This document shows positions 17,011 to 60,770 of a DNA stretch of 64,000 bases, piece after piece. The DNA is taken from NCBI RefSeq assembly GCF_049075655.1, contig NZ_CP157522.1:1440001-1504000 (forward strand), in the 5' to 3' direction. The notes below the pieces were generated by a model, which had not been told where the DNA came from, ran no database searches, and saw only the letters and a list, made by a program, of their open reading frames with translations. Both the position numbers and the translations under genes were made by a program. Within the stretch, counting starts at the first letter, position 1, and each line of letters begins with the position of its first letter. This DNA is from Methanothermococcus sp. Ax23. GTDB lineage: Archaea; AGJL01; Methanococci; Methanococcales; Methanococcaceae.

Positions 17011-17328
17011 GATAAACCGCCGAGAAAGCCAACGATTTTAATCGTTGGATGAGAGGCGGACATTATATCGGCTAGTAAGTAGTAAAATATAAATATGAGA
17101 AGATTAATAGTAAGTAACGCTACCAGTCCAAGTTCTAATGGGTAGGGTTAGTGAAAACTCTACCGCTGGTAGTGGTTGGTATCGTGGTTTGTTTTGATAG
17201 AGTAATCTTAGTGATACAGCGTAGCCCTGAATCTCCTAAACGGGGATAGGGGTAGTGGGCTTGGCCACCCATGTAGGGTTAAACCCTGCTAAAAGAACCC
17301 AACGAGTTCACTCGTTGGAGTAGGTCAG
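17011..17328 (+). mobile_element. non-autonomous IS200/IS605 mini-element (same family as 58246-59712), carrying an omega-RNA-like region
   Basis: preceded by TTAC; LE AAAG + CCAACGATT/AATCGTTGG hairpin; RE GAAC + CCAACGAGT/ACTCGTTGG hairpin ending TCAG; both ends near-identical to those of the tnpB element. Confidence 0.92.
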
Positions 17329-17361
17329 AATATGGTGAATAGGTATAAAATATTTATTGAA

Positions 17362-57924: not shown

Positions 57925-58210
57925 AAATCTCACAATTTAAGCTATAAACAATAGTATCCTCTGGAAAGAGATTCTTAATTTTTTCTTTAATTTCATCGAG
58001 CTCAGCACTACTTAACATCTCATCGATTTCTTTATCAAGTGTAAATCCACATCTGTAATAGTATGTATCTCCAACTACTGCCCCAATTTCTGGAAACTCC
58101 AATGACCTTGTGATAATATCTTCTCCAACTATTTCTATGATTCCCTTTAATATGTTTTCAAAATCTATTATTTCTTTATTGTAAAATACTCCATCAATCA
58201 TAATCTTCAT
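57917..58210 (-). CDS. hypothetical acidic protein
   Basis: ATG 58210 after GGTGA; the longer ORF-track start lies inside the IS end. Confidence 0.7.
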   Translation of the reverse strand: MKIMIDGVFYNKEIIDFENILKGIIEIVGEDIITRSLEFPEIGAVVGDTYYYRCGFTLDKEIDEMLSSAELDEIKEKIKNLFPEDTIVYSLNCEIYE

Positions 58211-58245
58211 TTTTTCACCGAATTTATGTTTGTATTTTCTTTTCT

Positions 58246-59712
58246 CTGACCTACTCCCACGACTAAAGTCGTGGGGTTCTTTAGTAGGGTCTAACCCTAC
58301 ATGGGTGGCCAAACCCACTACCCCTATCTCCGTTTAGGAGATTCAGGGCTACGCTACATGAAAATACTTTTTTCAAAATATTCAAAGCACCATTAACATC
58401 AGCATTCAAAACCATACCACACTCACTACAAACATACAAACCCCTATACTTTCTATTGCTCTTTTTAACTACACCACAATTACTGCAAGTTTGAGAAGTA
58501 TAAGCTTCATTAACCTGTTCTACTGTTAATCCCTTTTCCTCTGCTTTATACTGTATCATACTTACTAACCTACCAAAAGGTATCTTGTGTATTTTCTCGT
58601 TGTTCTTTCTACCAATATCAATACTTGAAATGCCCTTGTTTAACTCACCGATTACAATCCTTGAAACTTTGTTATCCACTGCAAACTCAACAATCATTTT
58701 ACTAACCTTATGCAAATAATCCTTAGTATAATTCTTTTCTCTTACTGTTAAGCAGGATAATCGCTTATTATTCTTTAACTGTTTCCGTGTTAGTTTGGAC
58801 TGTAGTTCCCCCTTAGTTTTAGCAAACCATCGGAATTTAGAAATTAGTCTCCTTCCATCGTAGATTACTGCACTGCCCGTATTGGTTACTACTGTTGCTA
58901 AATTCTTAATTCCTAAATCAATACTTAATATATTACCTTCTTTGATAGGTTCTTGAATTACTGGTTTCTTATAGATTAAGTGAAGTATGTAGTAGGTTAT
59001 CCCGTAGATAGTCTGCGGAACTATCTCAACTTCTTTAACTTGCATGGTATCAAGCGGTAGAGTTTTCGATAACCCTACCCATAGATACCTGCACTTGATA
59101 CCATGCTTCTCTTTGAGATAGTTTTTAGTTTGTTTAGATAAGGATAATCTTAACTTATTGCCTATGATTTTGAAACCTTGCTTCTTCCATTTTACGGGAA
59201 AGTGTCCATCTTTTGGTTGGTATCGTGGTCTTTTAGTGTGTTGTTTGAAGTAGTTTTGCCATGCTATCGCTTGCGTAGCAAGCGAGCAACGAAAACCGAA
59301 GGTTTTCGTCTAATTGAGAGTTTTTGACATACTGCCTGTGCTGACTGTGAGTGCAGGTTTTTAAACCAGAAGTTATTCTTCATTTGAACATCTATCTTAC
59401 TAGGTTTAATGTTTCGTTGTATTACTTCGTAGTTAGATACATTCCAGAGTTTTGATGCTGAATAGGTTAAATGGTTTATGATTGTTAATTGTTCATTATT
59501 TAAACTTCTGGTTAGGTTTATTGTCAGCACTCTGGTTACTTGCATGGAATTCACCAAATTTATATATATGCTATTATTCTAATTACACTCATATATTATG
59601 TAGTGGAGTATATAAAAAAATGATGTCCGCCTATCATCCAATCTCATAAGAGATTTTACAAAACCTTGTTTTGTATAACGATTAAAATCGTTGGCTTTCT
59701 CGGCGGTTTATC
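58246..59712 (-). mobile_element. IS200/IS605-family element, tnpB only (IS1341-like)
   Basis: TTAC target 5' of LE (GTAA at 59713-59716); RE hairpin CCCACGACT-TT-AGTCGTGGG ending TCAG; no tnpA. Confidence 0.93.
58281..59545 (-). pseudogene. tnpB: TnpB RNA-guided nuclease, frameshifted by a 47-nt insertion
   Basis: SIDLGIKN, IGEL, CSNC..CSEC, NADVNGALNI; deleting 59266-59312 joins the two ORF pieces into about 405 aa. Confidence 0.92.
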
Positions 59713-59795
59713 GTAAAATATTTATTAAAATACATTAAAAAATATAAAAATGAATATTAAAATAAAATATTAAGGAATAATTAAATTAATTAAAA

Positions 59796-60770
59796 TCAGC
59801 ACCCGCAAATATATTCCCTATCAAAATCAAATAAAACTTCCTTATCTTTTCCATCGGTTATTATCAATTGCTTATTTTCTATAACCTCACCACACACTTC
59901 GGCAGTTATATTTACAAATTCTAAAACTTCTTTTAACCTATCAATTTTATCCTCTGGTGCAGTGAATACAAACCCGCATCCAGGATATAGTTTTAACCAC
60001 TGAATCATTGGAACACTTTCATTTCTTGGAATTTTTGTAATATCAACATGAGCTCCTTTTTTCGAAACCTCCAAAAGCATACCCAATGTTCCCAGAGCTC
60101 CGGGGTTGCTTATATCTTTACAGGCAGTGGCAAGTTTTTCCTCACCAACTATTTCAAGGGCTTTTAACTGGTCTCTAACAAGTTTTTTTGATTTCATTGT
60201 TGTAGTGTCCCAATTCAAATTAAATTTTTCATGTATTTTTCCATCCAAATCATAGGCAAAAACTATTTTATCTCCAATTTGTGCAGTGTCGCTTCTTAAT
60301 ACATTATCCTTTTTAACCACTCCTGTGATTGAAACATCGAGAACATTGCAGGTAGCATCTGGATGTGTATGTCCCCCAACCATGGGAATTCCAAATTTTT
60401 CTACGCCGTCTTTTATGCCTCTTAAAACCTCTCTTCCAATATCGCAATCTTTTATTCCTATTATATTTGTCATGGCTATGGATTTACCACCCATTGCTGC
60501 TATGTCATTTGCATTTACTAAAACAGAGCAGTATCCTGCCCACCATGGGTCAGATTCCAATAGCTTTCCCCAAATACCATCTGCGGCCAATAATATGGCG
60601 TTTTCACCATCTATACCAATTATTGCAGCATCATCTCCAAAGTCGGAAATAATATTAAAATAATAATCGTTATCTTCAAATTTAAAATTGGATATGACAT
60701 TTTTTATTTCTTTTTTTCTTAAAACTCCTTCGAAATTTTTTAATTCATTTACTATCTCTTTTAAATTCAT
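59796..60770 (-). CDS. methanogenesis marker protein 2 (AIR synthase-like)
   Basis: GDDAAII, DPWWAGYCSVLVNANDIAAMGG, GGHTHPD, KDISNPG. Confidence 0.88.
   Translation of the reverse strand: MNLKEIVNELKNFEGVLRKKEIKNVISNFKFEDNDYYFNIISDFGDDAAIIGIDGENAILLAADGIWGKLLESDPWWAGYCSVLVNANDIAAMGGKSIAMTNIIGIKDCDIGREVLRGIKDGVEKFGIPMVGGHTHPDATCNVLDVSITGVVKKDNVLRSDTAQIGDKIVFAYDLDGKIHEKFNLNWDTTTMKSKKLVRDQLKALEIVGEEKLATACKDISNPGALGTLGMLLEVSKKGAHVDITKIPRNESVPMIQWLKLYPGCGFVFTAPEDKIDRLKEVLEFVNITAEVCGEVIENKQLIITDGKDKEVLFDFDREYICGC

Follow-up and report, generated by a model that had tools for sequence, protein, structure and literature searches.

The tnpB gene of an IS605/IS1341-type transposon in Methanothermococcus sp. 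Ax23 contains a structured unit in the middle of its reading frame (59042-59106, minus strand, which is the sense strand), recognized from the letters, from RNA folding, and from covariation. Our comparisons are best explained if the sense transcript of the transposon contains this unit as a conserved RNA domain that folds on its own, and if the unit is a third cis-acting part of this IS605/IS1341 (TnpB) family beside the element ends and the omega-RNA scaffold. Coordinates without a prefix refer to the window, the whole stretch of 64,000 nt that was analysed (positions 1,440,001 to 1,504,000 of contig NZ_CP157522.1).

The host element is a full-length, tnpB-only copy of IS605/IS1341 type on the minus strand (58246-59712), with its left end at 59712, its right end at about 58246, and TTAC (59713-59716) preceding the left end. 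It aligned end to end with eight other copies at 87-93% identity. The 1.67 Mb genome contained ten full copies and 28 gene-less mini-elements. Three of the ten full copies had an unbroken tnpB frame; the other seven, including the window's (58281-59545, minus strand), were frame-shifted by a single 47-nt insertion. An intact sister copy (L008:1678-2889) encoded a 404-aa TnpB that matched PF01385 (OrfB_IS605, 1.8e-21) and PF07282 (Cas12f1-like TNB, 3.3e-24) as well as solved TnpB and Cas12f chains, and the host element is an IS200/IS605 element with a TnpB of RuvC-like core and zinc ribbon (TNB). Its ends were also those of an IS200/IS605 element, with subterminal hairpins, no terminal inverted repeats, and insertion at a fixed motif: hairpins at both ends and TTAC before the left end were seen by eye in all nine aligned copies of this genome and in the mini-elements of relatives. 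The left end with its subterminal hairpin (59613-59712, minus strand) was 94-97% identical to the left ends of the mini-elements. The omega-RNA scaffold and right-end hairpin (58246-58352, minus strand) were located by a collapse of synonymous change and by a below-threshold sot0042 match to the homologous stretch of the mini-elements of relatives. The Y1 transposase profile PF01797 had no match in this genome; in relatives, an ORF with an HUH-like motif (tnpA-like) lay directly upstream of tnpB. Past the window end, 4.5 kb from the window's copy, was a further full copy in the opposite orientation (G000:C1:1504248-1505736).

The unit consists of an outer helix, P1, a perfect 13-bp inverted repeat (59106-59094 paired with 59054-59042); a one-sided internal loop of 14 nt (59080-59093); an inner hairpin, P2 (59056-59079), whose 9-bp stem is capped by an apical loop of 6 nt; and a single unpaired G (59055) between P1 and P2. 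Read off the forward-strand letters, the perfect 13-bp stem, bulge, and hairpin were as the initial annotation had described them, and its estimate of about 800 nt to the right end agreed with a measured distance of ~800-860 nt from the unit to 58246. The fold is beyond chance: the sense RNA reached -35.1 kcal/mol (z -7.58), which none of 200 shuffles equalled, and the antisense strand folded more weakly as RNA (-28.4, z -5.69). With the right end set aside, the unit was the top local fold in an intact copy. Both ends of the internal loop were conserved in coding and non-coding copies, as invariant alignment columns showed, and the mini-elements of relatives agreed.

Within the gene the unit is in frame and encodes ordinary TnpB residues (~131-152). 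Since a 37%-identical paralogue aligned through the segment with only four residues fewer, the unit is not an insertion, and we rejected a nested palindromic insertion of the double-hairpin or RPE type: the unit was present in all ten full copies and in all orthologues. A 254-aa frame called by the ORF finder begins at an ATG inside the unit and runs to the tnpB stop. The P1 3' strand (59042-59051, minus strand) repeats 10 letters around the tnpB start (59536-59547, minus strand), ATG included and in frame. A similar fold at the same place in the distant, single-copy paralogue was sought and rejected, as only a 7-bp hairpin was there. That paralogue has a strong two-helix mid-gene fold of its own (G000:C1:1425085-1425150), ~190 nt downstream of the homologous position, which we regard as unrelated and whose outer arms resemble those of the unit in mini-elements.

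The frame-breaking insertion of the window's copy (59266-59312, minus strand), delimited by alignment with intact copies, is a G+C-rich double-hairpin module of 47 nt and is not part of the unit. Modules of this kind, ~44-52 nt long, often with UUCG loops and with covarying stems, also occurred in L066, L065, L100, L108, and L114. Their sites in the family were the left end; at least three positions in tnpB (the frame-breaking one in 7/10 copies of this genome, the others in frame); two apical loops, one in the unit and one in the first scaffold hairpin; and the interval between the last two scaffold hairpins. About ten modules lay elsewhere in the genome, among 45 pattern matches. The apical loop of the unit takes double-hairpin insertions of 44-45 nt in many mini-elements and, in frame, in one tnpB.

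The mini-elements have both ends, no protein gene, and many copies, and are thus PATE/MITE derivatives. The 28 copies of this genome were ~250-330 nt long, and together with those of eight other genomes they had one layout: TTAC, left-end hairpin, TATA box, unit, linker, scaffold, and right-end hairpin. In the window, the 318-bp mini-element reported in the initial annotation was recovered at 17011-17329 (plus strand, ~318 nt), with a TATA-like octamer (17087-17094, 6/8 consensus positions), the unit (17116-17178), and the omega-RNA scaffold with the right end (17221-17329). It had the same inner hairpin as the full element, and its outer arms, different in sequence, still paired over 9-11 bp including one G.U. 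As a whole this copy of the unit folded less strikingly than that of the full element (z -2.78, reached by 2/200 shuffles). The linker from unit to scaffold measured 12-15 nt, except in a long-linker subtype of 42-45 nt made up of 4/28 mini-elements, the window's among them.

The TATA box of the mini-elements in this genome was weak, at 6/8 positions. The gap from the box to the unit was 15-23 nt with a mode of 20, in a count that left out seven matches (one mini-element of this genome, one degenerate copy, two mini-elements of relatives that were missed, and three chance matches). In the available text of a study of M. jannaschii promoters, transcription started 23 +/- 2 nt after the box in 126/134 cases (PMC2699501). 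Combined with the gap length, this spacing rule places the predicted start of mini-element transcripts in the opening bases of the outer helix. The P1 5' strand of the mini-elements resembled, by eye, the first codons of tnpB in this genome and the first codons of tnpA in relatives, and in each case the P1 3' strand, also aligned by eye, was complementary to the new 5' strand. These sequences suggest two deletion lineages of mini-elements, each of which rebuilt the outer helix, while a single origin of both kinds would also be compatible with them. A small ORF at the 5' end was seen by eye in some mini-elements of relatives and was absent from those of this genome. In one mini-element (G000:C1:1542608-1544039), ~1.1 kb separated the left end from the unit, possibly through a nested insertion.

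Retention of the unit was complete among the copies of this genome, as all ten full copies and 28/28 mini-elements carried it. A covariance model built from 29 unit sequences was run on 40 genomes of the order, and the phylum-level search covered the same 40. It placed the unit in 12/40 genomes (this one and 11 others), in tnpB orthologues and in mini-elements, with 9/17 genomes of one other genus and 2/2 of another represented. Neither the unit nor a close tnpB was found in any of the 12 other genomes of the host's own genus, and this absence suggests that the family reached the genome by horizontal transfer. Five genomes searched by scaffold had 6, 3, 3, 2, and 1 mini-elements with the unit, and every multi-copy mini-element in G007, G014, G017, and G039 retained it. 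The unit was absent from three derivatives (L122, L123, and L124), all single-copy and decayed, one of them a left end fused to a truncated scaffold. A pattern scan of metagenomes returned 24 stretches (17 distinct; 18 of mini-element type and 6 of full type) with one common layout and no new context, and the same pattern returned none from the viral contigs scanned.

Pairing within the unit was maintained by compensatory change. Our first alignment held 29 distinct units, from seven full copies of this genome, eight orthologues in seven other genomes, and 14 mini-elements of this genome. Of its 638 cells, 92.3% paired, against 31.7-47.6% when the 3' partners were slid by 1-3 columns; 11/22 pairs had changes on both sides, and none of 500 shuffles reached the observed values. 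A second alignment of 43 distinct units, which is model-fitted and so favours the structure, paired in 92.3% of 938 cells with both-side changes in 16/22 pairs. The covariation claimed by the initial annotation was therefore borne out. Because copies within a genome are kin that descend from few ancestors, their counts are not independent, and we put the weight on comparisons between genomes. Some compensations altered the protein, with a Lys-to-Glu change matched by Thr-to-Ala and a silent His change matched by Met-to-Val.

The kinds of pairs indicate which strand folds. The 18 inner pairs comprised 771 cells, of which 701 were Watson-Crick, 60 G.U, 3 A.C, and 7 others. The excess of G.U over A.C means that the sense strand folds, either as RNA or as the top DNA strand of the same polarity. 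G.U prevailed at two pairs, one midway along the P2 stem and one in the outer stem; judged by sequence, such pairs suit RNA better than DNA, short of proof.

Synonymous change gave a second line of evidence for constraint at the nucleotide level. Across nine orthologous tnpB genes the pairwise synonymous difference was 0.386 overall. In 12-codon windows it had two minima, one of 0.14-0.25 at codons ~126-158, which is the unit including its loop, and one of 0.01-0.12 at codons ~377-403, which is the omega-RNA scaffold in the last ~25 codons; every remaining window was at 0.23 or above. The two minima are exactly the regions kept by the mini-elements. An internal promoter ahead of the unit in tnpB was considered and rejected: by eye, there was no TATA-like box at the right distance, and synonymous change there was 0.4-0.54.

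The unit lies outside the known omega-RNA scaffold. Rfam returned no family for 58100-59800 at E <= 1. In the mini-elements of relatives, the first position of the sot0042 model fell immediately 3' of the unit and its linker; the match scored 35-40 bits, below the gathering threshold of 88, and on this alignment the unit is not part of the known sot/omega scaffold. In full copies, ~750 nt of ordinarily evolving coding sequence separated the two. A split or very long omega-RNA, or else a third cis-acting structure, had been proposed in the initial annotation, and the proposal holds in part. The third cis-acting structure is supported by covariation, by suppressed synonymous change, and by retention in every multiplied mini-element lineage. 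The split omega-RNA is not, as both the sot0042 model and the synonymous profile set the 5' edge of the scaffold 3' of the unit. A very long omega-RNA is plausible for mini-elements only, where the unit stands at the predicted start and 12-45 nt before the scaffold; a primary mini-element transcript would, given that position, carry both.

In a predicted mini-element RNA of 195 nt, the unit stayed a separate 5' domain when folded at 37 and at 65 C. The RNA evidence is thin: contigs from vent metatranscriptomes covered the unit of mini-elements and two X2 contigs bridged unit and scaffold; these contigs give neither ends nor strand, and carry-over of DNA is possible. Contig depth in full copies had no step at the unit, and depth of contigs cannot rank parts of a gene. 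For a kissing interaction, RNAduplex gave -11.3 kcal/mol between the 5' part of the unit's internal loop and the second scaffold hairpin's loop; the idea was dropped because one-base variants of the unit loop occur with an identical scaffold loop, and conversely, with no covariation. A search for the complement of the unit loop elsewhere in the genome, for example in rRNA, returned six matches scattered in coding sequence and, apart from those, nothing but the antisense strand of the units themselves. Known self-cleaving ribozymes, K-turns, H/ACA and C/D guides, and BHB motifs were rejected as identities for the unit, none having an Rfam match; informally and by eye, the unit lacked GA pairs opposite the loop, ACA and C/D boxes, and any pair of 3-nt bulges around a 4-bp helix.

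Two observations concern the scaffold itself. By eye, 9-10 letters of the P2 5' strand (59071-59082, minus strand) recur in the 5' strand of the third scaffold hairpin (58280-58300, minus strand) in the lineage of this genome, and in a diverged copy (G000:C1:946179-947359) similar G-to-A changes are seen in both hairpins. Chance or gene conversion could account for this likeness, as could a binding partner common to both or a potential for pairing across the hairpins. HgcC is an Rfam family found in M. jannaschii by its G+C content. It matched the right-end hairpin and the end of the mini-elements of relatives (L108, L114, and L107) below threshold, at 25-32 bits against 50. HgcC RNAs may thus be omega-RNAs or PATE transcripts of related elements, a link hinted at in the accessible portion of Gomes-Filho 2015 (PMC4615843).

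We consider the chances about even that the unit serves as an accessory cis-acting RNA domain of the guide-RNA system. In mini-elements, the left-end TATA box would drive transcription beginning at the foot of the outer helix, and the primary RNA would consist, in order, of unit, short linker, omega scaffold, and guide. The guide-RNA precursor would then have the unit as its accessory 5' domain: the unit may shield the 5' end from 5'-to-3' decay and from ribosome loading, it may prevent the leader from misfolding with the scaffold, and its conserved internal loop may be where TnpB or a host protein docks. For full copies, which have the unit ~390 nt from the start of the tnpB mRNA, its target would be the mRNA itself or the RNP of that mRNA. 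Some of our results sit less well with an accessory guide-RNA domain: a plain protective hairpin needs no sequence-conserved internal loop, tnpB has no TATA-like box or conserved stretch upstream of the unit, and the G.U bias cannot tell sense RNA from the top DNA strand of the same polarity.

That last ambiguity leaves room for a DNA function. IS200/IS605 elements move as single-stranded DNA and use DNA hairpins at both ends, and the unit could be a fold on the excised or lagging top strand that aids TnpA-driven peel-and-paste, for example by drawing the two ends together or by making the single-stranded intermediate more stable. TTAC precedes the left end on the sense strand, so the top strand has the polarity of the sense RNA and the observed strand bias fits; multi-copy status was found only in mini-elements with the unit; and relatives have the tnpA-like ORF beside tnpB. 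Nevertheless we consider a DNA role unlikely. A G.T majority midway along the 9-bp stem, and likewise in the outer stem, would be costly in DNA hairpins at vent temperatures and is tolerated in RNA; to our knowledge the known IS200/IS605 systems require only the two ends; this genome lacks any PF01797 (Y1) match; and a DNA role would not account for the fact that, in two mini-element lineages, transcripts are predicted to start at the foot of the outer helix. If RNA is the active form, as these points suggest, the unit might still be more than accessory: it might contact TnpB as an integral portion of a long or bipartite omega-RNA on which cleavage depends. The position of the unit directly before the scaffold in mini-elements, the RNA-library contigs that bridge the two, and the resemblance by eye of the P2 5' strand to a scaffold hairpin in the lineage of this genome, with parallel change in the diverged copy, all point that way. 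Such a role is quite improbable given that sot0042 aligned from its first position 3' of the unit and linker, that the linker varies from 12 to 45 nt, that the apical loop tolerates insertions of 44-45 nt, and that the unit of full copies is ~750 nt away across sequence with ordinary synonymous change. Trimming of the omega-RNA 5' side by TnpB, reported in the available text of PMC10278001, also argues against it.

Two further readings give the unit no part in guide-RNA biology. One is regulation of tnpB translation, in which the fold would pause ribosomes or mask an internal start that yields a truncated TnpB, and would be no more than a handy stable hairpin in mini-elements. The fold is stable, and the P1 3' strand does hold an in-frame ATG (GTG in one lineage) that opens the 254-aa frame to the stop. 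However, that codon is ACG in three copies of this genome, inspection by eye found nothing like a Shine-Dalgarno run ahead of the internal start, and mini-elements without the ATG still keep the loop sequence and rebuild the helix, which makes translational control very doubtful. The other is the absence of any function, with a palindrome kept by templated mutation or gene conversion and passed to mini-elements by descent. Quasi-palindromes can be corrected by template switching, and copies within one genome are close kin; but orthologues in eight other genomes differ at many pairs and keep the pairing, partly through amino-acid changes, and the suppression of synonymous change spans the loop as well as the stems. 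Correction at the DNA level makes perfect pairs, under which 60 G.U against 3 A.C would be unexpected. We regard this last explanation as extremely improbable.

Several known systems resemble the proposed accessory domain in part. Protective 5' stem-loops of bacterial transcripts and the leader stem-loop of IS200 tnpA are stable helices at or near the first base, as the unit would be in mini-elements; unlike the unit, these stem-loops need no conserved internal loop and are not coding elsewhere in the element. By analogy only, the in-ORF cis elements of RNA viruses are likewise selected structures with suppressed synonymous change and compensations, although they serve as replication signals and belong to other organisms. 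The omega-RNA or sotRNA of IS1341-type TnpB (Rfam RF02656, sot0042; HgcC, RF00062) is like the unit in being a sense-strand structure that overlaps tnpB and is kept in gene-less derivatives. It overlaps only the 3' end of tnpB, whereas the unit of full copies lies ~750 nt farther upstream, and that of mini-elements precedes the first position of the model.

PATEs are gene-less IS200/IS605 derivatives, and the mini-elements likewise have both ends, no gene, many copies, and a guide scaffold for TnpB supplied in trans. PATEs with omega-RNAs or guide scaffolds are already known, according to the available text of a preprint (Meers 2023, PMC10055086) and of Gomes-Filho 2015 (PMC4615843). As described in those texts, PATEs are fused ends with or without a scaffold; the mini-elements here also hold a promoter and a mid-tnpB piece with a rebuilt helix. 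The nearest functional precedent, by analogy, would be a mid-ORF region of the AmaTnpB mRNA (nt 825-875), which was inhibitory to the RNP in vitro and presumably pairs with the scaffold (Nety 2023, PMC10278001, available text). Like the unit, it is an mRNA stretch from the middle of a TnpB ORF for which a cis effect on the TnpB-omega-RNA complex is proposed. The AmaTnpB region was defined in vitro and occupies a different position in the gene, and the accessible part of that article reports no conservation, covariation, or retention in mini-elements. In the literature searched, which was outside subscription journals and supplements, we found no description of a conserved mid-tnpB fold or of PATEs retaining one.

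TnpB transposons are usually credited with two cis elements, TnpA being served by the ends and TnpB by the 3' omega-RNA scaffold. The third element described here is clearly selected, enough to shape the amino-acid choices of TnpB, and is the sole internal piece besides the scaffold in the successful gene-less derivatives. Going further, we tentatively suggest as one possibility that in this lineage the OMEGA systems include a second RNA module whose conserved loop is recognized sequence-specifically by a protein, either TnpB or some host factor; this module might function as an operator in the tnpB mRNA and as a loading or maturation handle in mini-elements. An operator inside the tnpB mRNA would imply feedback on translation or on RNP activity, and a loading or maturation handle would enable gene-less mini-elements to compete for TnpB made elsewhere. 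If the unit affects guide-RNA stability, maturation, or TnpB loading, it would bear on competition from non-autonomous elements, on the natural control of TnpB, and on the design of TnpB guide RNAs for thermophiles.
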